Below, one piece after another: positions 42,812-58,373 of a DNA stretch of 64,000 nt. The notes below the pieces were generated by a model. That model was not told the DNA's origin. It was given only the letters and a program-made list of their open reading frames with translations, and did no database searches. Source of the stretch: Kiritimatiellota bacterium (GTDB lineage Bacteria > Verrucomicrobiota > Kiritimatiellia > JAAZAB01); NCBI GenBank assembly GCA_026398415.1, contig JAPLSY010000084.1:94709-158708 (forward strand), given 5' to 3'. Numbering within the stretch: position 1 is the stretch's first letter; every line of letters starts with the position of its first letter. The position numbers were made by a program, and so were the translations under genes.

Positions 42812-44818
42812 ATGTCATACTTTAATTTTGCATCGCGCATCAAATCCAAGCGGATTTTACCGATCGTCGTCATTACTTGCCTGATCCTGTGCGGTGGCAT
42901 CCTGACGGGCGCCCGGATCCACGGGTTTTCCTTCGCCTCCTGGCATTCCGCCATTGACGGCTCACCGCACCGCGAAGTGTTCTTTAGCAAGGTTAATCGC
43001 TACCGGACGGATGATTGGATTGTGATGTTGCCGCACATGCTGGCCCAGCGGGCCGACCAGCCGCCCTTTGCCGCTGAAAATCGGCTGATCGGCGACGGGC
43101 ACTACAACATGCTGATCACCTGCGCGGCGCCGGCGCGCGATCCGATGGTGTTATTCCGTCCCCAGGTGTGGGGTTATTTCATTTCCGGCGATATCGGCAT
43201 GGCGTTCCAGTGGTGGTTCTATGTGTTCGGCACCTGGATCGCCGTGTGGCTGGTCCTGCGCCGGTTGACGGGCAACGACGAATGGACTTCCGCATGCGGC
43301 GCTACGGCATTGCTTTTCTCGCCGTTTTTTCAGGCCTGGTCGCTCAACTGCACGCCGACGGTAATTTTCGCCTGCGGCACACTCTTTTCCCTGGCACAAC
43401 TAAGGACGACCCGATCAACCTTTCAGCTTCTGCTGTCAGCCGTTCTCCTGGCCTGGTTCGGAATGGCGTTTTTATTGACCTTCAATTACCTGCCATATCT
43501 GGTCACCCTGTTTTACTGCATCGTCTTTGTTTTTACCGGGATGGCGGTCAGGGCCCATGGCCCCGGCCCTGCCGATAACCGGGAAGCGCCGCGACGCCAT
43601 ATTCATTGGCCCAGCAGGACTCGCTGGGCTTGCGCCCTGTTAGCCGTTCTCTGCATTCTCGGCCTGGGCGCGTACATGGCCGCGAGCAACTGGGAAACGA
43701 TTGCCATCATTCGGAACAGCGATTACCCCGGCCAGCGTTTATCGTCCGGCGGCGATCAAACAATCTGGCATCTTTTTCGGGGTAATGTCCTCAGCATTAA
43801 ACCGCCACCGGCATGGCGGGATTTCAATCCGTGTGAAGGCGCCGCTTTTTTTCTGGTTTTTCCGCTGGTAGTTGCCGCCCTGCTCCGGGACTGGTGGCGC
43901 ACCCGCAAACCACCCCATGCCCTGCTCCTCGGGATTGCAGGTTACATTACCTTCCTGTTGTTCTGGAACCTGACCGGGTTTCCGGAACTATTGTCGCGCT
44001 GGACGCTGATGAATCGAGCGCCGCCCTTTCGGACGCTGATTGGACTGGGAATCGCGGATATTCTTTTATTGTCAGTTTATGTTTCCCACCGGCAACAATT
44101 GACTCCGGCATCCCATAAGGATTACGTTACGCCTTGGATCGTCAGCGCGCTCTGGATTACGTTTCATGTGGTGTTAGGAATCAAGTTTTCCAGGTACTTC
44201 CCGGATTATTCCATCAATACGGCGCTGATCGGCGGCCTTTTTGCGATGGCCCTGGCGCCCCTGCTCTACCTGGCGCCGCGCCTGGTCCTCCCGGCCATCA
44301 TGCTCGCCGCTATCCTGACCACCTATGACGTTAATCCTCTGGCCCGCGGCGGCACGACCTTCATTCAGGAGAACCCGCTCTCCCAGAAAATCCGGACAAT
44401 CGATCAGGAAACTAAAAATCAAGGCCACCAGCCGGTTTGGATTGCCTATGGCGACGCAGCATTGCCGAACCTGTTTCGCATGATCGGGTCGCGCGCGCTC
44501 AACGGCGTGCATGCCTATTCCCAGTTTGAACTGTGGAAAACGCTGGACCCGGAAGGCCAGTCCCGGCCGGTATATAACCGCTATGCCCATGTTGTCTTTG
44601 AAGTACCGCCCGTGCCGGACGATTTTAAAATCAATCTTGTTTATAATGATAACGTCGCCGTCGACCTGCACCCGGACAACCCGCGGTTTGCCGCCCTGAA
44701 CGTGGATTACCTTCTTTGCCTGGACAATCAAGTTGAATCGCTTGACCGCGTAGCGAAGCTGAAAAAGATTTATTCCTACGCCGGCAGGCACATTTACCGG
44801 GTTGAGCACGCGCCATAG
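42812..44818 (+). CDS. Large polytopic membrane protein, GT-C-like putative glycosyltransferase
   Basis: 668 aa with more than 12 TM helices, an acidic 'DD' in the first extracytoplasmic loop, and a soluble C-terminal domain. It lies upstream of the polyprenyl-P sugar synthase gene. Confidence 0.35.
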   Translation: MSYFNFASRIKSKRILPIVVITCLILCGGILTGARIHGFSFASWHSAIDGSPHREVFFSKVNRYRTDDWIVMLPHMLAQRADQPPFAAENRLIGDGHYNMLITCAAPARDPMVLFRPQVWGYFISGDIGMAFQWWFYVFGTWIAVWLVLRRLTGNDEWTSACGATALLFSPFFQAWSLNCTPTVIFACGTLFSLAQLRTTRSTFQLLLSAVLLAWFGMAFLLTFNYLPYLVTLFYCIVFVFTGMAVRAHGPGPADNREAPRRHIHWPSRTRWACALLAVLCILGLGAYMAASNWETIAIIRNSDYPGQRLSSGGDQTIWHLFRGNVLSIKPPPAWRDFNPCEGAAFFLVFPLVVAALLRDWWRTRKPPHALLLGIAGYITFLLFWNLTGFPELLSRWTLMNRAPPFRTLIGLGIADILLLSVYVSHRQQLTPASHKDYVTPWIVSALWITFHVVLGIKFSRYFPDYSINTALIGGLFAMALAPLLYLAPRLVLPAIMLAAILTTYDVNPLARGGTTFIQENPLSQKIRTIDQETKNQGHQPVWIAYGDAALPNLFRMIGSRALNGVHAYSQFELWKTLDPEGQSRPVYNRYAHVVFEVPPVPDDFKINLVYNDNVAVDLHPDNPRFAALNVDYLLCLDNQVESLDRVAKLKKIYSYAGRHIYRVEHAP

Positions 44819-44910
44819 GGAAGGCTTCGGCGTTGACATGCCACCCCTTTTTGTATAACTGTGTAATCTTGAAGTTTGTTGCCAAATCAATCCCGTCGGA
44901 ACCGCCGCAT

Positions 44911-46686
44911 ATGGACGATCAACAGTCAACACGTTGGATCTCCGAGTGGATGATCAAAGGCCATCGGCGTACGATAACGCTGATTGCGGCGCTGGCGTTG
45001 GCCGCACCAGCGGCGTTAGCCGCCGCGACCTGGATGCTTTACGGTTCGGCCTGTTCGGACTGGTGGTATGCCGATGATGCCGCTCACCTGTGGTTTGTGA
45101 TGCGGCACGATCAAATCTGGCAGTACTTTGCAGTGCCGGAAGTCAGCCGGGCAGCCTCAGCCCATTTGGTGCCCTGGGTCTTCATGCTCTATCGGCTGAT
45201 CTATGTTTGCTGCGGCATGGAACACCCGGGCACCGCGTATGCGTTGCAGTTGTTGTCCCTGTTTGCAGTGGCCTGGATGACCCGGGTCCTGTTGGGATTA
45301 TGGGTCTGCACGGCTTGGGCCTGGTTGGGGGCGTTCCTTTTTCTGTTGGGCGCGCCCGTAATGCACGTGGCCCACGAGCTCATGACCGTCAATTATGTGC
45401 AAGGCCTGTTTTTCGCGCTCATCGCCGCCTATGGATTTGTGCGCGCCATCAGGAACCTGACCTGGTGGCCGGCGGTGGCCGGCGGGTTTTGTTACCTGCT
45501 TGCCGTCACGGCCAAAGAAATCTATGTGCCGCTGCCGATGCTTCTGCTGTTTCTGCCGGAGAACACATGGAAACAGCGCGGCCTGAAGGCTCTGCCGTTC
45601 TTAATCGTGCTGACGGCCTATGTGCCGTGGCGCTGGTTCATGCTGGACACGTTAGTCGGGGGCTATCAGTCGCAAACCTCCGGCCCGGGCATCGTCCCGG
45701 TCTGCCAGGCATTACGGCACGTTCCGGTCATGATCCTGGGCGCCGACGGTTTGGGTTGGGGCGTCATGATCGCCGGCTTGCTCGGCCTGATGTTGCTTGT
45801 CGGGTTGAGCTGGCGGAAGATTGTCTTTGGACTGGTTGGCCTGTGCGCATTGCTGGGGCCGCTGGTGCCCTTGACGCAATTTCCCGGCTTGGTCTCCCCG
45901 GGACGCTATCTGTTTGTGGTGTGGTGGGGTATGACGGCCGCATGTGTGCTGGTCATGGAACGGCTGAGTTGCGGTCGCCATTGGCGGGGCCATCGCTGGC
46001 AGGGCCATCGTTGGCTGGCATGGGTCGCGCTCGCGTTGTGGGTGGCGATCAGCCTGGCCGCCGGCCGTGAAATGCGGCGGGAACAGCGCCAATCTCAATC
46101 CTGGATCGACAGCTATGAAACCCAGGGACGGTTTTTGTGGGCCGCTGCGAGCGACCGGATTTTTCTGATCCGCCCACCCTTTCATGTTGCGCGCTTCGTG
46201 GCGGCCATTAAGCAGAAACTCGCCGGCGCGGGATCGGCGCCGATCGTCATCGATGACCAGGCCGATTTGGAAATCCAGACCCGCCTGGGCCTGGTGGCCG
46301 GTGCGGCGCGTTCCAATGCCACGGTCTGGGCGTACAACGAATCGGGGCGCCGGATGGAAGAGATCACGGGAGAATTCCGGCAACAGCAGGCTGAATCTCC
46401 CGCCCGGGTCCAGGAATCGGCCCTGCGGATTGACTTGCAGTTTGAGAGGCAGGCCATGCGCTGGCGGTTCGGTCCATACGAGCAAGGGAACTATCTGATG
46501 GTGCGCCTGGCCGAAGGCCGCATAATTGACCGGATTCACTTTTTACCGGAGGGTCAGCGGGACGCCACGGGCGGCGGCGTCTTTGACTTCTTTCTGCGCT
46601 ACGACTCGCCCGAAGGCTGGACGACCTATTCGCCCGTGTTGCGGTTCGATCGCCAGCAGGGCGGCGTGGTATGGCGCCGGGATTGA
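44911..46686 (+). CDS. Large polytopic membrane protein, GT-C-like (ArnT/PMT-like) putative glycosyltransferase
   Basis: More than 11 TM helices, 'YADDAAH' in the first loop, and a C-terminal soluble domain. Assigned from context with the ArnC-like GT2 genes. Confidence 0.35.
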   Translation: MDDQQSTRWISEWMIKGHRRTITLIAALALAAPAALAAATWMLYGSACSDWWYADDAAHLWFVMRHDQIWQYFAVPEVSRAASAHLVPWVFMLYRLIYVCCGMEHPGTAYALQLLSLFAVAWMTRVLLGLWVCTAWAWLGAFLFLLGAPVMHVAHELMTVNYVQGLFFALIAAYGFVRAIRNLTWWPAVAGGFCYLLAVTAKEIYVPLPMLLLFLPENTWKQRGLKALPFLIVLTAYVPWRWFMLDTLVGGYQSQTSGPGIVPVCQALRHVPVMILGADGLGWGVMIAGLLGLMLLVGLSWRKIVFGLVGLCALLGPLVPLTQFPGLVSPGRYLFVVWWGMTAACVLVMERLSCGRHWRGHRWQGHRWLAWVALALWVAISLAAGREMRREQRQSQSWIDSYETQGRFLWAAASDRIFLIRPPFHVARFVAAIKQKLAGAGSAPIVIDDQADLEIQTRLGLVAGAARSNATVWAYNESGRRMEEITGEFRQQQAESPARVQESALRIDLQFERQAMRWRFGPYEQGNYLMVRLAEGRIIDRIHFLPEGQRDATGGGVFDFFLRYDSPEGWTTYSPVLRFDRQQGGVVWRRD

Positions 46687-46848
46687 CGGCGGACGCAGTC
46701 TATTTAAATGATTACGAAGATTTTTCGACAGGATTAACAGGATTTACAGGATGATGAAAAACCGATCGGATAATCTGTCAAATTGCTGAACCTTAACAGA
46801 TGACTTTGGATGTAATCAAACGCGTAACTTTATCCGGAGACGAAAAGC

Positions 46849-47817
46849 ATGAAATCAGTAACTATCGTCATTCCCGTGTTGAATGAAGCAACCGCGATCG
46901 CCGCGAATATGCGTCAAATCATGGAGTCCGTAAAGTCGTTAGGCGCTACGGTTGATGCCCGGATTCTCGTGGTGGACGACGGCTCCCGCGACGACACGGT
47001 GCGCATCGTACAGCGTCTGGCGGAAACCGAGCCGACCGTCCAGGTGCTGGCCCTCACGCGGAACTTTGGGAAAGAGGCGGCCATCCACGCGGGCTTGGAT
47101 CACGCATCGGGCGACGCCGTGATCGTCATGGACTGCGACCTGCAACATCCGCCGGCCTTGCTGCCCCGAATGATCCAGCTCTGGCGCGATGGTCTTGATG
47201 TTGTGGAGGCGTATAAAATCGATCGGGGCGGCGAGTCATGGCTCTCCGGACTTTTGGCCGGCGGGTTCTATGCGCTCTTCAACCGGCTGGCGGGATTCGA
47301 TCTGCGGAATCATTCTGATTTCAAGTTGCTGGACCGCAAGGTTGTGGAAGCCTATTGCCGATTGCCGGAGCGGGAACGATTCTTCCGGGGCCTGATCACG
47401 TGGATGCACTTCCCCTCCGCGCGCATCCCGTTTGAGGTTCCGGAGCGGAGCGGCGGCGGCTCGGCGTGGTCCCGGCTGCGCCTGGTCAAATATTCATTGA
47501 CCATCATTTCGTCCTTCTCCTCATTGCCGCTGCAGGTCGTGGGCTGGGCGGGCGCCTTGACGCTCTGCATCAGCCTGGTACTGGGCACAAAGGCGCTGTA
47601 TGACAAGTTCATGGGCCACGCCATTGACGGATTTGCCACCGTCATTTTGCTGGTCCTGATTCTCGGCAGTATCATCATGCTCAGCATCGGCGTCGTGGGC
47701 AATTATATCGCCCGTATTTACGAGGAAGTCAAGCGCCGGCCAAGCTATCTCATTGACCTGCGCCGCAGTTCCGTTACGGAACGGCAGAGCGCCGACCGGG
47801 CCGGGGAGCCTGAATGA
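46849..47817 (+). CDS. Polyprenyl-phosphate sugar synthase (GT2; ArnC/GtrB/DPM1-like)
   Basis: 'VTIVIPVLNE...ILVVDDGSRDDT...ALTRNFGKEAAIHAGLDHASGDAVIVMDCDLQHPP' plus two C-terminal TM helices, the ArnC/GtrB architecture. Confidence 0.75.
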   Translation: MKSVTIVIPVLNEATAIAANMRQIMESVKSLGATVDARILVVDDGSRDDTVRIVQRLAETEPTVQVLALTRNFGKEAAIHAGLDHASGDAVIVMDCDLQHPPALLPRMIQLWRDGLDVVEAYKIDRGGESWLSGLLAGGFYALFNRLAGFDLRNHSDFKLLDRKVVEAYCRLPERERFFRGLITWMHFPSARIPFEVPERSGGGSAWSRLRLVKYSLTIISSFSSLPLQVVGWAGALTLCISLVLGTKALYDKFMGHAIDGFATVILLVLILGSIIMLSIGVVGNYIARIYEEVKRRPSYLIDLRRSSVTERQSADRAGEPE

Positions 47818-48653
47818 GTCTGTCCGGCAACATCCAACTGGAAACGGCGGATTGTCCATTATGCGGCGCCGGCAACGGCAAGCCCACGCGGTTCGACTTT
47901 ACGCCCTATAAACTGGCGCGCTGCGCGGAATGCGGTTTGTATTTTTGCGCCACCCGCTTGAAGCCCGAGGATGTGGCCAAGCTTTATGCGCATCACGACT
48001 ATTTTGAGGGACAGGGCTATGATTCGTATGCCGCGCAGGAACCGGCCTTGCGGCTGACCTTTCGCCGGTTTTTAAAAAAACTGAACGCAGCCTTTCCCCT
48101 GCAGGGCGCGCTACTCGAGATTGGTTGCGGTTATGGCTACCTGCTGGATGAAGCCCGGCCATATTTCCAGCAACGTGTCGGCACGGATTTTTCTCCCCAG
48201 GCAGTCAAGCAGGCCGCCACCTATGGAGCCAAAATCTATCAGGGCGATATTGACGGACTGCCCCGTGACGACCGCTATGATTGCATCATCCTGGCGCACG
48301 TTATCGAGCATGTCTATCGGCCGGTTCCGTTGTTGCGCGCCATCCGGGACAAATTAAAGGCGGGCGGCGTGGTGGCCGTGGCCACGCCAAATATCGGCAG
48401 TCTCTGGTTCCCAATCATGGGTCGAAAATGGGCATCGTTCAAGATTCCGGAACATGTGGCTTTTTATGAACGGCCAACGCTGAACCGCTTGCTGGCATCG
48501 GCCGGATTCAGGGACATTCGCACCATTCCCTATTTACATGCGTTTCCGTTAGCGCTCATTGCGAACAAACTGGCGGCACGCATGCCGGCCAGGATGGGGC
48601 GGTGGTCGTGTTGGATTCCAGGGACAACCATTGCCATGGCAGCACGCAACTAA
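47814..48653 (+). CDS. Class I SAM-dependent methyltransferase
   Basis: Motif I 'LLEIGCGYGYLL', a post-I acidic residue, 'DCIILAHVIEHV'. An N-terminal Cys4 zinc ribbon (CPLCG...CAECG). Confidence 0.65.
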   Translation: MSLSGNIQLETADCPLCGAGNGKPTRFDFTPYKLARCAECGLYFCATRLKPEDVAKLYAHHDYFEGQGYDSYAAQEPALRLTFRRFLKKLNAAFPLQGALLEIGCGYGYLLDEARPYFQQRVGTDFSPQAVKQAATYGAKIYQGDIDGLPRDDRYDCIILAHVIEHVYRPVPLLRAIRDKLKAGGVVAVATPNIGSLWFPIMGRKWASFKIPEHVAFYERPTLNRLLASAGFRDIRTIPYLHAFPLALIANKLAARMPARMGRWSCWIPGTTIAMAARN

Positions 48654-48756
48654 CGGGCCAATGGCGAATACGCCTCCGCGCTTGACACCCCGGGCCGCTT
48701 TGTCCATCGTAATAGCCGGGAAACTGTTCTAACCGGCGTCCGATCATGGTGGTTTA

Positions 48757-49734
48757 ATGAAGATTCTTGTTACGGGAGCAACGGGCTTTCTTGGAGCGCA
48801 TGTTGTGCGGCGATTGATCGAACGCCGCGACGATGTGCGTTGCCTTATCCGCCAGGACAAGGCCTGTCTTCCGGAGGGTACTCAGCGCCTGATCGGGGAC
48901 ATTCTGGATCCGGAGGTCCTGGGCAAAGCCATGGAGGATGTGGACGTCGTCTGCCATTGTGCGGCCCTGGTGGCGGGACGGCACAAGCGGGACGATTTCT
49001 TCCGTGTGAACGTAAGGGGGTTGGAAAACATGCTCAACGCCGCCGCCCGTGCAAACGTGAAACGGTTTATTCACATCAGCACGTGCAGTGTGCTGGGCAG
49101 TGGCGTCCATCTCGACACTGACGAGCGCGCGCCTTTGATCGAGTCCGGACACCCCTACCGCGACTCGAAAGTCGCGGCCGAAAGGTTAATCAAGGCAAGC
49201 TCGTATCGTTCCTCGGTGGCCATCATCAGGCCCGGCTGGATCTACGGACCGGGAGAACGGAACGTATTGCCGATGATCCTCGAGCGATTAAAAACGGGCA
49301 AGATGTATGTCATCGCGGGGGGCAGGAAACTGGTCCATACTGTTTTTGTCGGCCACGTGGCCGACGCCGTTGTGGCCGCTGCAGACAAGCCTGCCGCCGC
49401 GGGTCAAGCATACAACCTGACGGATGGCCGGCATTTAACCATGATGGAGTTTCTGGAGACCCTGCGTCGCGCGGCGGCATTGAAACATGGCATCCGGAAC
49501 ATGCCTTATCCGGCGGCCTATGCCGCCGCGCTGGCAGGTACCGCGTGGGAGACTTTGTCAGGCCGGGAAGCCCTTTTCGACTTGCCCAAGTTAAGAACGG
49601 TCATGACCGACTTCAGCTTCTCCATTGAAAAGGCCAAACGGGACCTGGCCTATTCCCCGGCCGTATCAACCGAGGAAGGCTTGAGATTGTTTGTCGAAGA
49701 ATACGAAGCGCGCTTGAAGAAAGGCGGCCGCTGA
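48757..49734 (+). CDS. NAD-dependent sugar epimerase/reductase (extended SDR)
   Basis: 'ILVTGATGFLGAHVV' and the catalytic 'YRDSK'. Confidence 0.75.
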   Translation: MKILVTGATGFLGAHVVRRLIERRDDVRCLIRQDKACLPEGTQRLIGDILDPEVLGKAMEDVDVVCHCAALVAGRHKRDDFFRVNVRGLENMLNAAARANVKRFIHISTCSVLGSGVHLDTDERAPLIESGHPYRDSKVAAERLIKASSYRSSVAIIRPGWIYGPGERNVLPMILERLKTGKMYVIAGGRKLVHTVFVGHVADAVVAAADKPAAAGQAYNLTDGRHLTMMEFLETLRRAAALKHGIRNMPYPAAYAAALAGTAWETLSGREALFDLPKLRTVMTDFSFSIEKAKRDLAYSPAVSTEEGLRLFVEEYEARLKKGGR

Positions 49735-49735
49735 T

Positions 49736-50800
49736 ATGAATGCGATGGCTTCAGGAATGCTGAACATGGCCGGCATGGGCCTGCGCATGGTCGCGCACGG
49801 TTATGTTTCACCCCGGAAAGTTTTGAATTTCATCCGCTGCCTGGCGCACCCATACATGGGCAATGTGATTTCGACAGGCTACCCCCCGGCATTGGCGATC
49901 GACCCTTCGGCCACATGCAATCTGGGTTGTTTCGCCTGCCCGGCGGGTAACGCCGCGCCCACTCCGCTCAAGAATATGAACTTCGCCGACTACACGAAAC
50001 TTATTGACGAAGTCGGCGCTTACGCATTGATTACATTCCTCTACGTCACCGGGGAACCCTTTATGAACAAGGACCTGGCGCGTTATATCGAGTATGCGCA
50101 CCGCAAACGCATCTATACCGTGGTCAGCACTAACGGGCATTTCATCAATACCCCGGAACAAGCGGAAAAAATCGTCAACTCCGGCCTTGACGATTTGATC
50201 ATCACCATTTCGGGATTATCGCAGGAGGTTTACGAAAAATATCATCGGCACGGCCATATTGCCACGGTCCTGAAAGGACTTGATAATCTCGTGGCCGCGC
50301 GAATCAGACTGGGGAAAAAATCACCCAAACTGACTATTCGGTATGTTGAGTTCGCGTACAACCTGGAAGAGCGTGATAAAGCCCGGGCGCATTTTATGAA
50401 ATCCGGCGCCGATGCGTTTACAGCCCGGGCGGCACGTGGCAATATCGCGCCCGGCATGGTGCCCCAGGAATTGAAGGGCGTCATGGCTGAATACAAGCAA
50501 CAATTTATCGCCCCCGGCAATGTGGCGGCCAAGCAACCGCAATACCGGCGCTGCCTCTGGCCGTGGCTGATTGCAGTGGTGAACTGGGATGGCGTGTTAA
50601 CGCCCTGCACGCAATATCCCTGGGTAAAAGAGGAGAACACCCAGAATTATCTCGGCAACGTCTTCAAGGAGGGGAGCTTCCAAAAAGCATGGCAGGGCCG
50701 GAGATTGATGGATTACAGGACACACTTGCTGGATAAAAACCTGATTCCCGATTCCTGCAAGAACTGCATCCGTTCCGTAGGATTCGGCGATGACACTTGA
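49736..50800 (+). CDS. Radical SAM enzyme with C-terminal Cys-rich (SPASM/twitch-like) domain
   Basis: 'CNLGCFAC' (CxxxCxxC), 'FLYVTGEPFMN', and C-terminal cysteines (C..C..CKNC). Confidence 0.65.
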   Translation: MNAMASGMLNMAGMGLRMVAHGYVSPRKVLNFIRCLAHPYMGNVISTGYPPALAIDPSATCNLGCFACPAGNAAPTPLKNMNFADYTKLIDEVGAYALITFLYVTGEPFMNKDLARYIEYAHRKRIYTVVSTNGHFINTPEQAEKIVNSGLDDLIITISGLSQEVYEKYHRHGHIATVLKGLDNLVAARIRLGKKSPKLTIRYVEFAYNLEERDKARAHFMKSGADAFTARAARGNIAPGMVPQELKGVMAEYKQQFIAPGNVAAKQPQYRRCLWPWLIAVVNWDGVLTPCTQYPWVKEENTQNYLGNVFKEGSFQKAWQGRRLMDYRTHLLDKNLIPDSCKNCIRSVGFGDDT

Positions 50801-50834
50801 GCGCTCCCGTCCTTTACTTCCGTAATGCGATCCT

Positions 50835-51578
50835 CTATTCCCCGAACCATTTATGATAGTAGAGCAGGCAGGAGCGCGTAATGAAGCCGCTGCGTTGCAC
50901 CATGCGTTGGGTGGGCACGTTGCGGCCTTGGGTCGCCAGCCAAACGTGCTCGATGTTGTGACGCACGAACCAGTCCAGTCCGGCGCGGAATAATTCCTGG
51001 CCCACGCCGGTTTTGCGGGCAGTCTCGCGTACCCCGGTTAGTTCATACCGGGCTTCCGGCTTGTCCTTGCTGAGCACCCCCGTGATGTACCCGACGACTT
51101 CATTGTTTTTTTCGGCCACCAGGGCAAGCTCGACGCCGCCTTCCAAGCTTTTCTTGACCCAGGTGGCGTAATAGGCCTGACATTTTTCTTCCGAAAAATG
51201 TTCGTCAAAGTAATAACGCGAATCGACATAACTGGTGCGCGCAATATCCTGGCAAATGGGAACGTCGGCAGGTTTAGCGCCACGGATCAGCACATCCGCG
51301 GCGGTTCTCGGCCGGGTATCGGGATTCCAATCGCGCAAGGACCGTTCCACATTCAGGCGGATTTCGACCAGGCGAAAGCCGTTGCTTTCAGCCTGACGGA
51401 TGGTCTGGCGGTCTTCCGCGCCGGCTATAAAATACAGGCATGCGATGCGTTGGTTTGCGCACCAGTTGTAAATTTCCTTGATAATCCGGCTGTCCAGGGC
51501 AGGGACCGCCGCCCGCGCAATACGAAAGCCGAAGAAATCAGTATCCCATTGAAGAAATTGGCAGGGTTCACTCGTCAT
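50835..51578 (-). CDS. GNAT N-acetyltransferase, WecD (dTDP-4-amino-4,6-dideoxyhexose N-acetyltransferase)-like
   Basis: Collinear with E. coli WecD landmarks: N-terminal 'W.TDFFG', 'SR(Y/F)', 'YA.W', and C-terminal 'RVATQ.(G/R)N..A...Y...GF'. Confidence 0.5.
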   Translation of the reverse strand: MTSEPCQFLQWDTDFFGFRIARAAVPALDSRIIKEIYNWCANQRIACLYFIAGAEDRQTIRQAESNGFRLVEIRLNVERSLRDWNPDTRPRTAADVLIRGAKPADVPICQDIARTSYVDSRYYFDEHFSEEKCQAYYATWVKKSLEGGVELALVAEKNNEVVGYITGVLSKDKPEARYELTGVRETARKTGVGQELFRAGLDWFVRHNIEHVWLATQGRNVPTQRMVQRSGFITRSCLLYYHKWFGE

Positions 51579-51831
51579 CTTGGCGGTTTTCTCCTGAGCA
51601 GGCGTCTCATTGCACGTATTTTACCCGCATCATTCTTGGTTGCTAATACGCCTTTCCGCCTTAAGCGGATCCGCATCGGGCGGAAAAGCGTGATAAATTT
51701 CCTCGTTTTCCTGTCGTTTGTCAAGACATCCGTTGAATATTGACTTTCGTTTTTGATTGAATTCAGGTTGTTATTGCCTCCCGGCACGGTTGTGTTAAAC
51801 TGCAGCCGGTTTTCATAGAATTATAAGCATA

Positions 51832-52827
51832 ATGGAATCCGAACCTGTCAGCAACAGTTTGCCCGCAACCACCGCATCCGTCAGCGTGGTGGTGCCGGTA
51901 TATCGTTCCGAAGCGTCCCTGCGGCCGCTGGTAGAACGAATGCTGGCCGTGTTGCAGGGGCACCCGGCCAAGTTCGAAATCATCCTGGTCAACGACGGCA
52001 GTCCGGATCGCTGTTGGTCCTTGATCGAGGACCTGGCTCGCGCCAACCCGCGCATCCGGGGTATTAACCTCATGCGCAATTTCGGCCAGCAAAACGCCCT
52101 GCTCTGCGGTATCCGCGCGGCACGGTTCGACGTGACGGTCACCCTGGATGCGGACCTGCAGCATCCGCCCGAGGAAATCCCGAAGTTGCTGTCCAAACTG
52201 GCGGAAGGCTTTGATGTGGTTTATGGCGTGCCCGCCGAGGTAAAGCACAGTTTATTCCGCCGCCTGGCTTCGCGCCTGATGCGGGTTGTCGCGCTCCAGG
52301 CCCTGGGCATTGCCAACGCATCGCAAATCAGCGCCCTGCGGGCCTTTCGCACGCAATTGCGCGATGCCTTTGCGGAGTTCCAGGGTCCGTTTGCATCCAT
52401 TGACGTCCTGCTCACGTGGGGCACAATGCGCTTCACTTCCGTCCTGGTGCGGCATGATGCGCGCATCCACGGATGCTCCAGTTATTCGCTGGCCAAGTTA
52501 TTGGCGAATTGCTTTGACGTTATTACCGGCTTTTCGACGCTGCCTCTGCGACTGGCCAGTTGGATCGGATTCTTTTTCACGCTTTTCGGCATCGGCATCC
52601 TGATCTACGTGGTCAGCCTCTACCTGATCATGGGCTACAGCATACCCGGCTTCCCCTTTCTGGCTTCCATTATCGCCATTTTTGCCGGGGCCCAGCTTTT
52701 TGCCCTGGGCATTATCGGCGAGTATATTTCGCGGATGCATTTTCGGCTCATGGACCGTCCAACCTACGTCGTGCGCCAGACAGCGGAATACGTTGATACG
52801 AAGCAAACGCCGACTTGTCCGCCATAG
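51832..52827 (+). CDS. Polyprenyl-phosphate sugar synthase (GT2; ArnC/GtrB-like), second copy
   Basis: 'VSVVVPVYRSE...ILVNDGSPD...NLMRNFGQQNALLCGIRAARFDVTVTLDADLQHPP' plus C-terminal TM helices. Confidence 0.75.
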   Translation: MESEPVSNSLPATTASVSVVVPVYRSEASLRPLVERMLAVLQGHPAKFEIILVNDGSPDRCWSLIEDLARANPRIRGINLMRNFGQQNALLCGIRAARFDVTVTLDADLQHPPEEIPKLLSKLAEGFDVVYGVPAEVKHSLFRRLASRLMRVVALQALGIANASQISALRAFRTQLRDAFAEFQGPFASIDVLLTWGTMRFTSVLVRHDARIHGCSSYSLAKLLANCFDVITGFSTLPLRLASWIGFFFTLFGIGILIYVVSLYLIMGYSIPGFPFLASIIAIFAGAQLFALGIIGEYISRMHFRLMDRPTYVVRQTAEYVDTKQTPTCPP

Positions 52828-52881
52828 CTTTTGAGCGACGGAGGAACGCCCAACCCTCCTACGCCCACATCCTGAGGAACA

Positions 52882-54309
52882 ATGCCAACGCCATTTCGAA
52901 TTATGCTGGTCAACGCGGTCGGAGCGTCTTCGTGGCTGGAACGCCGCCAGCCGATGCTGGGGCTCGGCTATCTCGCGGCCAGCGTTCGCCACGCCATCCC
53001 TGACACCCCCTTCGAATTCCGCGTCGTCGAAGAAAATGTCCAACAGGCGGCGGAGCAGTTCAACCCCCAGCTGGTCGGCATCAGCTTCGCCTCCCAAAAC
53101 ACAAAACTTGCCTTGCTTTATGCCGACGAATTCAGCCGCCGCGGCATTCCCGTCGTCATGGGCGGCGTGCACATTTCCGTCCTGCCCCGTTGTCTGCCGC
53201 AAAACGCGATAGCCGCCTGCCTGGGCGAGGGCGAGCAAACCTTCGTCGAACTGGTCAAGGCCGTCATGGGCGGTAAAACCGATGGTCAAACCCTGAAAAC
53301 GATCCCGGGCATCGCCTACTGGGAAGGAAATACACTTATACAGACCGCGAACCGGCCTTGCCTGGCCGACCTCGACACCCTGCCGTTACCGGACCGCAGC
53401 TTGTTCCCGATTTATAAGCACACCCACATCTTTACCTCGCGTGGATGTCCTTATCGGTGCGTATTCTGCGCCTCCTCGCGTTTCTGGGATAAGGTTCGCT
53501 TTCACTCCGCCGAATATATCGCCGATGAGATTGACCTGCTGGTCCGGCAATTCGGCGTGAACTTTATTTCATTTTATGACGACTTGTTTGTCGCCAAGAT
53601 TGAGCGGGCCGAGGCCCTGGCGCGCCTGCTGGAAAAACGCGGGTTGCTCAACAAAATCGGGTTCAGTTGCAATTGCCGCGCCAATCTGGCCAATCATGAC
53701 TTGGCTGCCCTGCTGGTGCGCCTGGGCATTAAATATGTTACCATGGGATTGGAATCCGGCGACGAACAAACCCTGCGTTATCTGAAAGGCGACAATGTGA
53801 CCGTCGCCCAAAACCGGGAGGCAATCCGCATTTTCAGGGAACACGGCCTGCGGATTAACGCGTACTTCATTATCGGCGCGCCCCGGGAAACCGGCGCCCA
53901 AATCATGAAAACCTACGATTTTATCCGGCAATCCAAGCCGGACCTGGTGGGCGTGAGTGTCCTGACTCCGTTTCCCGGCACGCCGGTCTGGGAATATGCC
54001 AAGGGCCGGAACCTGGTAGCGGATGAATCCTTTGACTGGACTAAATTAAATACCGGCGTTTACGACCATTCGGATAAATTTGTCCTGCTCTCCGAAGTGT
54101 TGACCCGCGCCGCATTCATCGGTTTTTATAAAAAAATGCAGCGTCTGCAATTCCGGCGGAACCTTATCGGTATTTGCCGCCATCCCATGCTCAACGACAT
54201 TGTCCTGATGCTGATTAATATTATCGCGCACCATTGCCGTCAGTGGTTGCACATCGCTGCGCGGCCCCAACCCCTGGCCGCAGAAAAGCCGGCGCCGGAT
54301 GCCGTATGA
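52882..54309 (+). CDS. Cobalamin-binding radical SAM enzyme (class B; putative C-methyltransferase or epimerase)
   Basis: N-terminal B12-binding Rossmann (LGLGYLAA...VGISF...VVMGGVH) and the radical SAM core 'SRGCPYRCVFC'. Confidence 0.7.
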   Translation: MPTPFRIMLVNAVGASSWLERRQPMLGLGYLAASVRHAIPDTPFEFRVVEENVQQAAEQFNPQLVGISFASQNTKLALLYADEFSRRGIPVVMGGVHISVLPRCLPQNAIAACLGEGEQTFVELVKAVMGGKTDGQTLKTIPGIAYWEGNTLIQTANRPCLADLDTLPLPDRSLFPIYKHTHIFTSRGCPYRCVFCASSRFWDKVRFHSAEYIADEIDLLVRQFGVNFISFYDDLFVAKIERAEALARLLEKRGLLNKIGFSCNCRANLANHDLAALLVRLGIKYVTMGLESGDEQTLRYLKGDNVTVAQNREAIRIFREHGLRINAYFIIGAPRETGAQIMKTYDFIRQSKPDLVGVSVLTPFPGTPVWEYAKGRNLVADESFDWTKLNTGVYDHSDKFVLLSEVLTRAAFIGFYKKMQRLQFRRNLIGICRHPMLNDIVLMLINIIAHHCRQWLHIAARPQPLAAEKPAPDAV

Positions 54310-54419
54310 CTCGTCAATCTAAAAACATAAAATCAGCGCTCCGCACTAAGCCGCGTGGCAAGCAAGTTCACCACGCCCGCAGCGCGGTGGCCCCGTTGCC
54401 GCAAACGGGGCATTCCGCC

Positions 54420-55568
54420 ATGACCCAGTCCGATTATGCCATCCCCTTTAATCGCCCCTGTTTTGTCGGCAACGAACAGGCTTACATGACCCGGGCCATC
54501 GCCAACGGCCAGATTTCGGGCGATGGCGCCTTCACGCGCCAATGCCATGCTTATCTTGAAAAAGCGCTTGGCGTACCCAAGGCATTATTGACCACCTCCT
54601 GCACGCACGCGCTGGAAATGGCGGCGCTCCTGCTCAATATCCAGCCCGGCGATGAAGTCATCGTGCCATCCTTCACTTTCGTTTCCACCGTCAACGCCTT
54701 TGTGCTCCGCGGCGCGCGCCCGGTGTTCGTTGATATCCGGCCGGACACGCTTAACCTGGATGAATCCTGCCTGGAGCGGCTGATCACGCCGCGCACCAAA
54801 GCCATCGTGCCGGTGCATTACGCCGGCGTGGGCTGCGAAATGGATGCCATTCTGGCTATCGCCGGAGCGCATGGCATTCCCGTGGTGGAGGACAATGCCC
54901 ACGGTCTGTTGGGCCGTTACAAGGGCCGCTGGCTGGGAACCTTCGGATGCCTGGCGGCCCAGAGCTTTCACGAAACCAAGAACTTTACCTGCGGTGAGGG
55001 TGGCGCCCTGCTGATTAACGACCCACGGTTCATCGAGCGGGCCGAAATCCTGAGGGAAAAAGGCACAAACCGCAGCCAGATGTTCCGGGGTCAAGTCGCT
55101 AAATACTCCTGGATTGACGTGGGTTCCAGCTACCTGCCCTCCGACCTGCTGGCGGCTTTCCTGCTGGCCCAGTTCGAGGCCCGGGATCATATTCAATCCG
55201 TTCGCCGGCGACTCTGGGATTTTTATGCCGCGCATTTGCGCGATTGGGCCGGCCGGCGCCACGTTGGCCTGCCGTCTGTCCCGGAGCATTGCGAACAGTC
55301 CTATCACATGTTTTATATGCTCATGCCATCGCTGGCCGCGCGGCAGGCGTTAATCGATCATCTGAAAACCAAGGGCATCCTGGCGGTCTACCACTACCTG
55401 CCTTTGCACCTCTCGGTTATGGGCCGCCGCTTTGACGGACGGACGGGCGATTGCCCGGTAACGGAATCGGTCAGCGACCGCCTGGTGCGCCTGCCGTTTT
55501 ATATCGGGCTGAGCAAAGCGGACCAAGCCCGCGTGGTGGCCGCGATTCTCGAATGCCCGGTGATTTAA
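54420..55568 (+). CDS. DegT/ArnB/WecE-family PLP aminotransferase (dTDP-4-keto-6-deoxyhexose 4-aminotransferase-like)
   Basis: Extensive collinear identity with E. coli WecE, recalled from memory: FTFVSTVNAFVLRGA.PVFVD(I/V)RPDT.N(L/I)DE; HYAGV.CEMD; FHETKN(F/Y)T.GEGGA.LIND; RAEI(L/I)REKGTNRSQ.FRGQV.KY.W.D.GSSYL.SDL.AA.L.AQ(F/L)EA; LRLP(F/L)(Y)..L. Confidence 0.8.
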   Translation: MTQSDYAIPFNRPCFVGNEQAYMTRAIANGQISGDGAFTRQCHAYLEKALGVPKALLTTSCTHALEMAALLLNIQPGDEVIVPSFTFVSTVNAFVLRGARPVFVDIRPDTLNLDESCLERLITPRTKAIVPVHYAGVGCEMDAILAIAGAHGIPVVEDNAHGLLGRYKGRWLGTFGCLAAQSFHETKNFTCGEGGALLINDPRFIERAEILREKGTNRSQMFRGQVAKYSWIDVGSSYLPSDLLAAFLLAQFEARDHIQSVRRRLWDFYAAHLRDWAGRRHVGLPSVPEHCEQSYHMFYMLMPSLAARQALIDHLKTKGILAVYHYLPLHLSVMGRRFDGRTGDCPVTESVSDRLVRLPFYIGLSKADQARVVAAILECPVI

Positions 55569-55577
55569 CCTAATGTA

Positions 55578-57257
55578 ATGGACCAATTCACTAAATGGAT
55601 CAATGCTTCCTGGCCGCTCTTCATTCTGAACGGGCTCTTCATCGGCATCGGTTTATCCTGGCTTTTCCTGATCCCCTACAACAATGCCCCCGACGAAAAC
55701 ACGCATTTCAAATACAGCGTTGAGTTCATTCTCACCCACCATCGCCTGCCGGTCTGGGGCGTGGATGATTTAAACCAGTTCCGTCACTCAATCGGTACTT
55801 ATAACCAGATGCCGGCGCTGAACTACGTGGCCGCCGCCGCCACCGCACATGCCGGCCACACGCTGTTTGGCATCGAGCCCTACCACGGCGCCCGGCTGGC
55901 ATCGTTAGCCTGGGGCCTGATTTTCATCAATGGCCTCTTTCTAACCATCAGGACACTGATTGATCGTCCGCTATCGTCGGCGATTGTCACGATGGCGTTC
56001 GCCTTCATTCCCCAGGTCCTATTCATCTTTTGTTATGTGAACGCGGACGCCTACGCGCTGGGCATCACCGCCCTGCTGGCGTATACGCTGGCGCGATTCT
56101 GGAAAACGCCATCCAATGCCGCCCTGGTCATGGTCGGCTTGGCCGGGGGCCTGCTCTTTTCGGCCAAATATAATTATTTTATCTTCATCCCTTTTCTGGC
56201 GGCCGGTTTCAGCTACCTGGCTTATCGCGGTCGCCTGCCGTGGTCTGCCGTGTTCCGCATGGCCCTGGCCGTGGCCTGCGGCGCCATCCTGATTTCCGGA
56301 TTCTGGTATGCGCGTAATTACTGGCTTTACGGGACGCCCATGCCTGTGCTCCTCGGCGAGGAACGTCTGGCACAATTAGGGGTCCTGCGCGAGGCGGTTC
56401 CCGTGAATCATGGGTTTTCCCGCGCATCCCTCCTCTGGCTGGTTCAGCAGAAATTTGTGACGACCACGTTCGCTTCGTTCTTCGGCCTGTTCGGCTATCT
56501 GGATGTCGGGTTCTGGCCGGAAGTGTACGCCCTGCTCCGGATCATCATTCCCGCGCTGGGCGCCCTGTTTCTATTTGAACTCCTGATGACGCGCGATCGC
56601 CCCGCCGAGATCGCCGCCCTGTGGCTGAGCGCCTTAATGCTGGCGGTATTGGGCATGCATGTGTGGATGAGTCTGTCCAACAATTTCCAGCCCCAAGGCC
56701 GGTATTATTTCACCGTGCTGGTGCCGATGGCGGTATTTTTGGGATGGACCGCCCGGCGCCAGCGTCGATTGCTGAAATACGCCGTAGCCCTGATGGTGGT
56801 GACCGGCGCGCTGATGGTCCAGGCAACCATGCTTTTCGCCCAAACGTACGGGGAGCCCCTGGTTTTTGCGGTCTTCTGGGATGGACCGGCGGGCCGCTGT
56901 GCGGCGATCAGCCGGGCGGAGCGCGTGGGAAAAAACTGTATCCGGGTTTCCTGCGCGCCCGACGACGCCCACGATATTACCCTGGTGCGCGTGGATTTTC
57001 CCAAGCGGATCCTGGGGCGTTACCGGGATTTCACACTGACCTTCAATGCCGAAGGCGACAAGCAGGTTTTTAGCGGGACCAATCTGCCGGATCCGCAGTG
57101 CGTGGATATAACATACGACCCAAAACTGAAGGCCTTTGACGCGATCGGACCCAATCCTTCCGCATCCTTTACGCTTTCCCCTGCCCCAACACCAATCCGG
57201 GCCATTACCCTCGATACGGCCGTCGAACATCGCCGCTTGCGCGACCCGGTATTCTGA
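55578..57257 (+). CDS. Large polytopic membrane protein, GT-C-like putative glycosyltransferase (third in cluster)
   Basis: About 13 TM helices, and 'NAPDENTHF' in the first periplasmic loop (the DE motif position of ArnT/PMT-type GT-C enzymes). C-terminal soluble domain. Confidence 0.4.
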   Translation: MDQFTKWINASWPLFILNGLFIGIGLSWLFLIPYNNAPDENTHFKYSVEFILTHHRLPVWGVDDLNQFRHSIGTYNQMPALNYVAAAATAHAGHTLFGIEPYHGARLASLAWGLIFINGLFLTIRTLIDRPLSSAIVTMAFAFIPQVLFIFCYVNADAYALGITALLAYTLARFWKTPSNAALVMVGLAGGLLFSAKYNYFIFIPFLAAGFSYLAYRGRLPWSAVFRMALAVACGAILISGFWYARNYWLYGTPMPVLLGEERLAQLGVLREAVPVNHGFSRASLLWLVQQKFVTTTFASFFGLFGYLDVGFWPEVYALLRIIIPALGALFLFELLMTRDRPAEIAALWLSALMLAVLGMHVWMSLSNNFQPQGRYYFTVLVPMAVFLGWTARRQRRLLKYAVALMVVTGALMVQATMLFAQTYGEPLVFAVFWDGPAGRCAAISRAERVGKNCIRVSCAPDDAHDITLVRVDFPKRILGRYRDFTLTFNAEGDKQVFSGTNLPDPQCVDITYDPKLKAFDAIGPNPSASFTLSPAPTPIRAITLDTAVEHRRLRDPVF

Positions 57258-57337
57258 TGAGTTTGATTTTCGGGGGGTACCGAACGGCCGGGGTGCTGAG
57301 AGTTTGTGCGGAACATGCAACACCCTCGAGCACGTAG

Positions 57338-57883
57338 TTATGCCTTTGTTAGCAATCGTTCTCGAATCTGCTGGAACAGGTTGCTCTTGCCTTCGTTTGC
57401 AGACCACCTCTCGATTTCGCCGAAATCAATTACGTTTTCCCTGGCAACCAAAATTGCCTGTTCGAGACACTGGTGATCATTGTCGTAGTAGAACCATGTC
57501 AGCCGGTCTTTTACGCAATCGGTGGGCGATATGATCTTGAGAATGCCGGTAGCCTCATGCCAATCATGGATCTCTTTGACGGGTTCTTCGCCAACGGAGG
57601 GTGGTCCTTTGGGAAACTCAACAAAGAAGTCTGTGCCCGGATGTTTGAAATACCGTCCATTTTCGGAGAAGCCCATGCTTAACATCACTTCACGAACCAA
57701 GCTGCGTTTGGGCGCCATGAGCGTAGTGTGAACCATATCCAAATCCATCGAAACATATTTTCCCTTACTGTAAATGGAAACGCACGCGCCACCGCAGAGG
57801 ACCACATCAATTCCTCTACCGCGAAGATGTTCCTGAATAAATGCCGCAAGGCCAGCCCTGCCCATTTTGCCGATGGGCTTCAT
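57338..57883 (-). CDS. Nucleotidyltransferase-fold protein, AbiEii/DUF1814-like (putative toxin)
   Basis: 'LCGGACVSIYSKGKYVSMDLDMV' fits the pol-beta NTase motif (hG[GS]x9-14DhDh) and the AbiEii 'GGTAL....S.D.DLF' pattern. It overlaps the upstream wHTH gene by 4 nt. GC ~48%. Confidence 0.4.
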   Translation of the reverse strand: MKPIGKMGRAGLAAFIQEHLRGRGIDVVLCGGACVSIYSKGKYVSMDLDMVHTTLMAPKRSLVREVMLSMGFSENGRYFKHPGTDFFVEFPKGPPSVGEEPVKEIHDWHEATGILKIISPTDCVKDRLTWFYYDNDHQCLEQAILVARENVIDFGEIERWSANEGKSNLFQQIRERLLTKA

Positions 57884-58245
57884 AACGGCTTGCCTCTCCG
57901 CCTCGGTCTTCGTCTATTAATAAGCAGTCGCTCCTTGAGGTCTACGGGGCAAAACATCATTACCTTGACAAGTAAGGCCTTGAGTTCATTCAGGAATGGA
58001 CAACGCGGATTGAATGAGTACAACCGTGTTTTACCTGCTGATCGGCTACGAAAAACCCCCCCCGCTTCCAGTTTGTCCAATTGATTGCGGATAGGTCTAT
58101 AGTCAACACCAAAAAAACGGGCAATTTCCCGGGGATATCCTTCCTCACGCGCAAGAATGAAGAGCAGAACTTGTTCGCAACTTGTTGATCCAAGCAGAGT
58201 TTCCAGCATTTTGCCAACTCCTTTCCTTTGCATCATATGATGCAC
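57880..58245 (-). CDS. Winged-helix transcriptional regulator, AbiEi-like (putative antitoxin)
   Basis: A wHTH-like core 'EQVLLFILAREEGYPREIARFFGVDYRPIRNQLDKLEAGGV', translationally coupled to the NTase gene. Confidence 0.4.
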   Translation of the reverse strand: MHHMMQRKGVGKMLETLLGSTSCEQVLLFILAREEGYPREIARFFGVDYRPIRNQLDKLEAGGVFRSRSAGKTRLYSFNPRCPFLNELKALLVKVMMFCPVDLKERLLINRRRPRRRGKPL

Positions 58246-58373
58246 ACATTACATCACGTGATGTAATATGTGCATCAGTATGCGCAATGGAACCAAGAAC
58301 TGCAAGTTTAATATTCAGATGGCAGAACGATGCTAAAATATATTTATGTATTTCTGTCGATTATCAAAGCAAA

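Follow-up and report, generated by a model that had tools for sequence, protein, structure and literature searches.

Why should a gene cluster for a bacterial surface sugar hold two dissimilar radical S-adenosylmethionine (SAM) enzymes? The question is raised by a stretch of 64,000 nucleotides from a Kiritimatiellota bacterium (GenBank assembly GCA_026398415.1, contig JAPLSY010000084.1, positions 94,709 to 158,708 of the forward strand), the whole of which is called the window here; coordinates are positions in this window, and L001, L087 and similar designations stand for homologous loci in other genomes. One of the two enzymes carries a C-terminal twitch-type domain and follows a gene for a short-chain dehydrogenase/reductase (SDR), and the other carries an N-terminal B12-binding domain. 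We propose that both intact enzymes tailor the sugar that the locus attaches to a cell-envelope acceptor of this anaerobic Kiritimatiellia bacterium, a reading that we regard as evenly poised between right and wrong. An original prediction had placed two different radical SAM genes here beside a methyltransferase and an SDR gene. The Pfam matches of both radical SAM genes lie far above chance, and the named neighbours are real, as are a GNAT acyltransferase, family 2 glycosyltransferases (GT2) and a WecE-type aminotransferase.

The first step is to establish what kind of pathway surrounds the two enzymes. Pfam and NCBIfam scans delimit one glycan cluster, formed by the genes from 42812 to 57257 (Table 1). 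Its aminotransferase exceeds the curated cut-offs of two NCBIfam models, NF008687 (565 bits; cut-off 375) and TIGR02379 (529 bits; cut-off 434.85), in agreement with the predicted sugar pathway around a 4-amino-4,6-dideoxyhexose, and the GNAT protein reaches 79.8 bits with the NCBIfam model of a dTDP-4-amino-4,6-dideoxy-D-galactose acyltransferase (cut-off 219). Two GT2 enzymes align over their full length with polyprenyl-phosphate sugar synthases, and each has two to three C-terminal hydrophobic helices. GT2a matches PgfS (248 bits, positions 3-303 of 308) and ArnC (138 bits) without reaching either equivalog cut-off, and has two C-terminal transmembrane helices; GT2b matches ArnC (207 bits, positions 6-311 of 316; cut-off 529) and likewise carries C-terminal transmembrane helices. 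The 559-aa membrane protein, with about seven transmembrane segments, passes the PMT_2 cut-off (30.2 bits against 26.1). Because WecE and PMT_2 lie above their cut-offs and both GT2 enzymes are of full-length PgfS/ArnC type with transmembrane helices, the locus is predicted to be a glycosylation cluster of the Arn/Gtr "three-component" type, periplasmic and dependent on polyprenyl phosphate, an assignment that is direct for the protein families and indirect for their substrates. GT2a and GT2b both have the features of the synthase component of such a system, and the 559-aa protein has those of its GT-C transferase. The parts list matches that of the Arn, Gtr and PpgS three-component periplasmic glycosylation systems (PMC11127046). 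It is not that of an antibiotic-type nucleoside-diphosphate-sugar pathway, and the cluster is not natural-product-like. Two absences weigh against this assignment: no small flippase of the GtrA or ArnE/F type was recognised between 42812 and 58245, and neither rmlA nor rmlB was seen within the window.

A second GT2/GT-C set may consist of the second GT2 and one or two more membrane proteins of GT-C-like type. The 668-aa protein matches DUF7657 (E 8.3e-75), DUF7654 (E 6.9e-28) and, weakly, PMT_2 in Pfam, has about ten hydrophobic segments and is 74% identical to an orthologue in the same position of L087. The 617-aa protein, with about eight such segments and 72% identity to its L087 orthologue, matched nothing in Pfam or NCBIfam. 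Both are polytopic by their hydrophobic segments, and a GT-C fold is a candidate assignment only.

The radical SAM enzyme at 49736-50800 matches PF04055 (E 6.9e-15, 56.0 bits; cut-off 29.5) and the SPASM family PF13186 (E 7.2e-9, 36.2 bits; cut-off 21.5). Its CNLGCFAC sequence is a CX3CX2C cluster motif (C61/C65/C68), invariant in an alignment of 32 homologues, and this motif and the PF04055 match place it in the radical SAM superfamily. A full SPASM domain has the seven-cysteine motif CX9-15GX4C ... CX2CX5CX3C ... C and holds two auxiliary clusters. Beyond residue 260 the enzyme has only four cysteines, C273, C291, C341 and C344, all invariant in the same 32 homologues and spaced CX17C...CX2C; the first SPASM half, CX12GX4C, and a CX2C are present, and CX5CX3C is absent. 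Since four C-terminal cysteines would provide ligands for one auxiliary cluster only, the domain is predicted to be a twitch domain, and the cysteine pattern places the enzyme in the twitch subclass (BtrN, MoaA type) and outside the full SPASM subfamily of anSME, PqqE and the sactipeptide maturases. The label "SPASM-type" in the original prediction thus holds for the PF13186 match and the CNLGCFAC motif, but not for the cysteine count. The CX17C...CX2C layout is presumably the spacing of the BtrN twitch domain, and the NCBIfam twitch model NF033640 aligns weakly with residues 273-346 (35 bits; cut-off 170).

An AlphaFold 2 model built from 32 sequences (mean predicted local distance difference test score, pLDDT, 86) was compared with the PDB by Foldseek, and BlsE (E 2.7e-13), DesII and BtrN led the matches at 15-17% identity and template modelling (TM) scores of 0.47-0.62; in a phmmer search of PDB sequences, BlsE and BtrN also came first. 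In this fold comparison, which the prediction had called for, the enzyme thus falls nearest to radical SAM enzymes that act on carbohydrates. Against this stand a modest margin between sugar- and peptide-acting structures (E 1e-13 against 1e-10, with TM scores of about 0.6) and the finding that no curated NCBIfam cut-off is reached, BlsE itself (TIGR04466) scoring 33 bits against 400.

What does the twitch enzyme work with? The stop codon of the SDR gene lies 1 nt before its start. Close homologues of the twitch enzyme (48-86% identity) are few, and a scan of metagenome contigs returned two loci only, adding one locus; where flanking sequence is available, the same SDR lies directly upstream in nearly all of them. 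This order is found in five independent contexts (L001, L002, L084, L086 and L090), and the SDR and the twitch enzyme are a tightly coupled two-gene module. Orthologues of the SDR keep GxxGxxG, VRCLxR at the end of strand beta2 and Y134xxxK138. Conserved arginines at the end of beta2 point to NADPH, and the sequence suggests an NADPH-dependent ketoreductase in preference to an epimerase of the GalE type, which carries bound NAD+. The nearest hidden Markov models (HMMs) are OleD and HpnA, and enzymes of the 3beta-HSD/NSDHL type are also among the best matches. An identity as RmlB or GalE was rejected, as both models score far under their cut-offs and the D-E pair of dehydratases is absent from the SDR sequence.

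Whether this pair edits the sugar of the locus is a separate matter. L001 is a syntenic Kiritimatiellia locus in which the pair also lies directly upstream of GT2b, and its nucleotide identity to the window pair, about 76%, is the level seen for the flanking GT2b and WecE-PMT_2 genes. This equal divergence of pair and flanks suggests long residence at the locus. L087 is a nearly identical cluster (72-89% protein identity, about 84% nucleotide identity) that lacks exactly the segment 48658-50825, which holds the SDR and twitch genes, and loss in L087 would be the simpler history. A recent foreign insertion of the pair was rejected, because the pair shows no anomaly in GC content overall or at third codon positions and no flanking repeats, and because the L001 comparison favours residence. 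In L087, an IS200/IS605-type Y1 transposase gene (4704-5717 of that locus) lies between the gene for the 617-aa membrane protein and GT2a, an insertion consistent with a rearrangement-prone locus, and the GNAT gene of the window is reversed in orientation relative to L087, as seen with blastn.

The wider family of the twitch enzyme, at about 30-35% identity, occurs in metagenome-assembled genomes (MAGs) of the FCB group, in Gemmatimonadota and in DPANN archaea. Among 76 loci of this family, the gene found most often near the twitch gene encodes a Glyco_transf_21-like GT2; it occurs in 29 of them, for the most part between positions -2 and +1. LPG_synthase_TM adjoins the twitch gene in 9 of the 76, and one protein may be a fusion of part of a GT2 with radical SAM and SPASM domains. 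In three DPANN lineages a B12 radical SAM gene directly follows a twitch gene, and the one DPANN locus that was annotated fully, L092 of Nanoarchaeota, contains almost the same set of parts as the window: methyltransferases, SDRs, two DegT proteins, a GNAT, a GT2, a PMT GT-C, a twitch and a B12 radical SAM enzyme, and nucleotidyltransferases. The rfb plasmid pBHWA1 of Brachyspira hyodysenteriae carries six full-length paralogues (22-27% identity) with the same CX17C...CX2C pattern, adjoining a glycosyltransferase, an NAD-dependent epimerase and rfbC. Plasmid pDCAR1 of Solidesulfovibrio carbinolicus holds a twitch homologue within a glycan cluster, in the order DegT, radical SAM, methyltransferase, WbqC. 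The relationship of the pBHWA1 block to the window enzyme is distant, and neither a B12 enzyme nor a GT-C enzyme is annotated on pBHWA1. The homologues on these two plasmids make the earlier description of such an enzyme as unusual for primary envelope glycans an overstatement. That radical SAM genes lie on the Brachyspira rfb plasmid had been noticed before, together with the presence or absence of the block between strains and its correlation with virulence (PMC4267127).

The strongest competitor to a role of both enzymes in the sugar pathway is that the SDR-twitch pair is a self-contained module unrelated to the glycan, acting on a membrane lipid, a cofactor or a small metabolite, with only the B12 enzyme serving the sugar; we consider this unlikely, though it retains some weight. 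In the closest relatives (48-64% identity) the SDR is retained, but no sugar cluster surrounds the pair. In L002, L003 and L090 an MTTB-family gene, the SDR gene and the twitch gene are followed by genes for four subunits of a 2-oxoacid:ferredoxin oxidoreductase, with no sugar genes; in the Verrucomicrobiota MAG loci L004 and L084 the pair lies among housekeeping genes; in L086 it stands alone; and one further place has the MTTB, radical SAM and oxidoreductase (POR) genes without the SDR. To these contexts are added the absence of the pair from L087, a cluster otherwise about 84% identical in nucleotides, in which the orientation of the GNAT gene is reversed and an IS200-like transposase gene lies close by, and the best HMMs of the SDR, which are lipid-type reductases and not nucleotide-sugar enzymes. 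On the other side, the pair stands directly upstream of GT2b in two genomes and has diverged there to the same degree as its flanking genes, the wider family is tied to GT2 and glycan loci in many lineages (DPANN, Brachyspira, Solidesulfovibrio), and the nearest solved structures of the twitch enzyme all act on carbohydrates. The operon-like row in L002 occupies 7309-14042 of that locus and comprises the MTTB-family methyltransferase, the SDR, the twitch enzyme and the four oxidoreductase subunits; an oxidoreductase of this type could be a source of reduced ferredoxin for the radical SAM enzyme; alternatively, the row could point to a role outside glycans. On balance, a part for the pair in editing the sugar of the window locus seems to us moderately probable. 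It is best described as a portable module whose link to this particular sugar is plausible, not proven.

The protein of the second radical SAM gene, encoded at 52882-54309 matches PF02310 (E 4.9e-14, 52.6 bits; cut-off 32.1) and then PF04055 (E 8.5e-24, 85.0 bits), and its CPYRCVFC sequence is a CX3CX2C motif with cysteines invariant in the alignment; a database copy of the protein begins at M8 (position 52903). An N-terminal PF02310 Rossmann domain followed by a radical SAM core is the class B architecture that had been predicted, and cobalamin use is likely. GT2b, the B12 enzyme, WecE and the GT-C enzyme are encoded by tightly packed genes that constitute a core operon. The mechanical open reading frame (ORF) of WecE begins at a TTG 76 nt inside the radical SAM gene (54234-54309). 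With the in-frame ATG at 54306 as its start, WecE would form an ATGA overlap with the stop codon of the radical SAM gene, and this start agrees with the gene call in L087. The start at 54306 is thus the likely one, and the overlap, together with the L087 call, suggests translational coupling of the B12 enzyme and WecE.

The B12 enzyme belongs to this operon as a constant component. L087 has an orthologue, 81% identical, in the same operon, and glycan clusters form the context of the B12 enzyme in all five places (L087, L088, L089, L094 and one further). In the four other than L087, GT2 and DUF2304 genes are paired, which we take to be pairs of the PpgS/Rv3632 type, and a methyltransferase of about 210 aa is encoded just upstream of the B12 orthologue; the window methyltransferase is 28-32% identical to those of L088, L089 and L094. 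In two of these GT2/DUF2304 contexts, L094 among them, a half-EamA protein of 121-122 aa, a candidate flippase resembling ArnE/F, is encoded between the methyltransferase and the B12 enzyme, and one of the B12 radical SAM glycan clusters holds an AglB oligosaccharyltransferase. Two to four B12 radical SAM paralogues of distinct subfamilies (25-38% mutual identity) are found per cluster in other phyla, namely in L088 (4419-12870), L089 (6604-9436) and L094 (5505-10374). In L001 the same slot is occupied by a different B12 enzyme (27% identical), a different GNAT and a different methyltransferase, with GT2b, WecE and GT-C conserved, and such a swap around a conserved core is the pattern expected of swappable tailoring cassettes. 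GT2b is 67% identical in L001 and 82% in L087, and the 559-aa GT-C protein 69% and 80%, respectively. A tblastn search of plasmids with the B12 enzyme returned only matches of 30% identity or less, bchE genes among them. The B12 and twitch enzymes have different histories, one as a fixed operon member and the other as part of a two-gene module that L087 lacks and that occurs elsewhere outside sugar clusters.

Which reaction the B12 enzyme catalyses is less readily assigned, since more than 3000 homologues exist, none of them functionally named. Its AlphaFold 2 model (pLDDT 89.5) has AprD4 as top Foldseek match in the PDB (TM score 0.69), closely followed by MgmA, TsrM, CysS, TokK and OxsB in the fold comparison that the prediction had called for, and AprD4 is the top PDB sequence match as well. 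Cobalamin-dependent methylation of an unactivated carbon, of the GenK/GenD1 type, would be the most likely reaction, favoured because it is the majority chemistry of the class and because several paralogues occur per cluster. Several observations weigh against methylation or cobalamin use. No NCBIfam equivalog assignment is supported, the scores and cut-offs being 152/481 for BchE, 124/578 for HpnJ, 112/600 for PhpK, 93/360 for MgmA, 89/650 for HpnR, 77/500 for AprD4 and 75/700 for KedN5. HpnJ is the top HMM match for paralogues in L088 (209 bits) and L092 (137 bits), under its cut-off in both, and AprD4, although first among the structural matches and alike in architecture, does not bind cobalamin (PMC12931638). 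The GenK-type C-methylation suggested at the outset is thus retained as one option, beside which stand the best HMMs (BchE and HpnJ) and the best structure (AprD4).

These observations lend substance to the view that the B12 enzyme is no methylase, and performs a BchE-, HpnJ- or Cds-like rearrangement of a lipid-linked amino sugar, for example ring contraction to a carbocycle, or an AprD4-like dehydration. The leading HMM scores, the HpnJ-like paralogues and the first place of AprD4 in both structure and PDB sequence searches all speak for it, as does the gene order of GT2 followed by radical SAM, which mirrors HpnI and HpnJ (PMC13459092). We nonetheless judge it improbable, because every score is far under its family cut-off, two to four paralogues per cluster would suit repeated methylation better than a single rearrangement, and MgmA, TsrM, CysS and TokK score nearly as high as AprD4 in the fold search; in addition, class B enzymes are predominantly methylases (PMC13142503).

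The weakest alternative makes the twitch enzyme a maturase of a ribosomally synthesised and post-translationally modified peptide (RiPP) or of a protein, either sactipeptide-type or an anSME for the many Kiritimatiellia sulfatases, inserted in a glycan locus, and we rejected it as very improbable: the Pfam SPASM match, the appearance of the peptide maturases SuiB, SkfB and CteB at fold-search ranks 5-13 (MoaA and EpeE likewise come after the three leading structures) and a best NCBIfam match to a metalloenzyme maturase model (87 bits; cut-off 380) are outweighed by a cysteine count too low for the two auxiliary clusters of anSME and SPASM maturases, a modelled N-terminus of two helices with no fold resembling a RiPP recognition element, a conserved partner that is an SDR and not a peptide, protease or transporter, the absence of anSME from the top 50 structural matches, and the lack of a convincing small precursor ORF in the gaps of 1, 34, 104 and 254 nt flanking the twitch enzyme and its neighbours, those around the pair being 1-104 nt and the longest lying between the GNAT and GT2b genes. 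A precursor peptide nearby had been named beforehand as the finding that would overturn the sugar hypothesis, and both the fold search and the search for small ORFs were negative.

If both enzymes tailor the sugar of the locus, the pathway may run as follows. WecE would aminate a dTDP-4-keto-6-deoxyhexose and the WecD-like GNAT would N-acylate the aminated sugar, which GT2b, resembling ArnC, would load onto undecaprenyl phosphate. After flipping, the PMT_2/GT-C enzyme would move the sugar onto an envelope acceptor outside the cytoplasm. The substrate of the radical SAM edits would be either the nucleotide sugar or the lipid-linked sugar. The B12 enzyme would tailor the amino sugar, most likely by the methylation discussed above and less likely by an HpnJ/BchE-type rearrangement of the lipid-linked form. 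The twitch enzyme would abstract a hydrogen from a carbinol carbon of the sugar and give a keto-sugar, by a BtrN-type dehydrogenation, a DesII-type deamination or dehydration, or a BlsE-type decarboxylation. The SDR would then reduce the ketone with NADPH, and the net result of the two steps could be an oxygen-independent epimerisation or deoxygenation.

Nearly all that is known of the radical SAM chemistry of sugars (BtrN, DesII, BlsE, AprD4, GenK) comes from actinomycete antibiotic pathways. In the literature searched, no description was found of radical SAM tailoring in polyprenyl-phosphate (undecaprenyl) glycosylation or O-antigen systems, and a 2026 review of B12-radical SAM enzymes does not mention glycans or polysaccharides. 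The present comparison suggests that two uncharacterised radical SAM families are routine in the envelope-glycan loci of anaerobes, including Kiritimatiellia, Riflebacteria, DPANN archaea, Brachyspira and a sulfate reducer, where they appear to be gained, lost and swapped like serotype genes. In its broadest and rather doubtful form, the proposal would be that anaerobes and DPANN archaea use a previously undescribed radical SAM layer that diversifies surface glycans at the lipid-carrier stage, with B12 enzymes C-methylating or carbocyclising polyprenyl-phosphate amino sugars and the twitch enzyme and SDR acting as an oxygen-independent counterpart of DprE1/DprE2, to give sugars so far unseen in envelope glycans. 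If this were true, both the range of known surface sugars and the glycoengineering toolbox would expand, a function could be assigned to the more than 3000 unnamed B12-radical SAM proteins, and the virulence-linked radical SAM block on the B. hyodysenteriae plasmid might be explained.

Table 1. Genes of the predicted glycan cluster, with positions in the window, strand and annotation
Feature	Position	Strand	Remarks
Polytopic membrane protein, 668 aa, DUF7657 + DUF7654	42812..44818	+	Candidate GT-C-like glycosyltransferase, first GT2/GT-C set
Polytopic membrane protein, 617 aa, family-less	44833..46686	+	Possible second GT-C-like enzyme or polymerase
GT2a, PgfS/ArnC-like polyprenyl-phosphate sugar synthase (predicted), 322 aa	46849..47817	+	Glycos_transf_2 E 4.7e-29
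Class I SAM-dependent methyltransferase, 279 aa	47814..48653	+	Methyltransf_23 E 1.7e-23
Extended SDR, 325 aa, partner of the twitch radical SAM enzyme	48757..49734	+	Epimerase E 3.3e-39, 3Beta_HSD E 3.9e-35
Twitch-domain radical SAM enzyme, 354 aa	49736..50800	+	PF04055 + PF13186
WecD-like GNAT N-acyltransferase, 247 aa	50835..51578	-	Acetyltransf_1 E 7.2e-13
GT2b, ArnC-like polyprenyl-phosphate amino-sugar synthase (predicted), 331 aa	51832..52827	+	Glycos_transf_2 E 9.8e-30; first gene of core operon
B12-binding-domain radical SAM enzyme, 475 aa (468 aa from M8 at 52903)	52882..54309	+	PF02310 + PF04055
WecE/VioA-type dTDP-4-keto-6-deoxyhexose 4-aminotransferase	54306..55568	+	NCBIfam NF008687, TIGR02379
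PMT_2/GT-C fold membrane glycosyltransferase, 559 aa, ArnT-like role (predicted)	55578..57257	+	PMT_2 E 6.2e-7

Around the cluster, a promoter and terminator scan gave no excess over shuffled sequences, and Rfam revealed no riboswitch near it. Just upstream lies an NfeD/SPFH (Band_7) gene pair (40409-42770), as is also the case in L001 (3463-5622 of that locus); such a pair is further found a few kb from a distant twitch homologue in a Latescibacterota MAG (L071, 5580-7706), and an SPFH gene without NfeD lies a few kb from a twitch homologue in a Gemmatimonas MAG (L063, 83-979). Upstream of the NfeD/SPFH pair, a 579-aa protein with two Glycos_transf_2 stretches (37636-39375, plus strand) and an adjoining family-less ORF of 329 aa may belong to a wider glycan region. 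On the downstream side, about 1.1 kb between the GT-C gene and a DUF6268 gene (57273-58374) is missing from the syntenic L001; it holds two overlapping small ORFs on the minus strand (57338-57883 and 57880-58245) encoding a family-less protein of 181 aa and a winged-helix-like protein of 121 aa (weak HTH_29), and may be a small mobile or toxin-antitoxin-like insertion. The remainder of the window consists of a dcw cell-wall cluster (24270-36256, minus strand: MraW, a PBP3-type transpeptidase, MurE, MurF, MraY, MurD, a LysM protein and FtsW) and unrelated genes. Among the latter, FG-GAP/VCBS-repeat proteins of 1459 aa (2682-7061, plus strand) and 1260 aa (8291-12073, minus strand) flank a LacI-type regulator and the single tRNA gene of the window (8109-8192, minus strand).

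How, then, does the locus compare with known systems? As a whole it resembles the three-component systems ArnC/ArnE-F/ArnT, GtrB/GtrA/GtrC, PpgS/Rv3632/Rv3779 and PgfS, with which it shares a GT2 with C-terminal transmembrane helices and GT-C transferases, an amino sugar fed in by an aminotransferase and an acyltransferase, and accessory tailoring genes that vary among related strains; it differs in that no flippase gene was recognised in the window. In such systems, accessory epimerases acting on undecaprenyl-phosphate sugars are gained and lost between serotypes, and DprE1/DprE2 and the ORF13 epimerase act on polyprenyl-phosphate sugars (PMC11127046).

For the twitch enzyme, the closest known enzymes are BtrN (2-deoxy-scyllo-inosamine dehydrogenase), DesII (TDP-4-amino-4,6-dideoxyglucose deaminase) and BlsE (cytosylglucuronate decarboxylase), which abstract hydrogen from a sugar or cyclitol carbon to give a keto product. 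These three are its top structural matches, with BlsE and BtrN also its top PDB sequence matches, and the substrate of DesII is the gluco form of the type of product made by the neighbouring WecE-family enzyme. It differs from them, at 15-17% identity, by an extra N-terminal stretch of 45 residues that forms two helices and by the obligate partnership with an SDR, and it lies in the cell-envelope locus of an uncultured anaerobe and not in an antibiotic cluster. The logic proposed for the pair would be functionally analogous to that of AprD4/AprD3 or DprE1/DprE2, in which an oxidising or dehydrating first enzyme yields a keto-sugar and an SDR reductase finishes the reaction; AprD4 has a class B-like architecture with no twitch domain and DprE1 is a flavoenzyme, so that the analogy is one of function and not of sequence.

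The B12 enzyme shares PF02310 and a radical SAM core with the sugar C-methylases GenK and GenD1 and the C-methylase Fom3, a likeness of architecture; in fold it is near TsrM, CysS, TokK, MgmA and OxsB, and it adjoins amino-sugar genes. It differs from GenK and GenD1 in its envelope-glycan context, theirs being an aminoglycoside pathway, and the methylase models KedN5, PhpK and HpnR score far under their cut-offs. In hopanoid synthesis, HpnI (a GT2), HpnK and the radical SAM enzyme HpnJ act in sequence on lipid-linked glucosamine (PMC13459092). This conversion of hopanoid glucosamine to a cyclitol ether and the calditol synthase Cds offer a further parallel, as a GT2 links an amino sugar to a lipid and a radical SAM enzyme, of the B12 type in HpnJ according to its TIGR03471 match, rearranges it. 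The B12 enzyme of the window stands apart from HpnJ in its score (124 bits against 578), in the absence of hopanoid genes and of a deacetylase from the cluster, and in its lipid, which would be polyprenyl phosphate. Taken together, the locus is not categorically new: it joins the logic of known systems with known enzyme superfamilies, in an uncharacterised combination that recurs across phyla.

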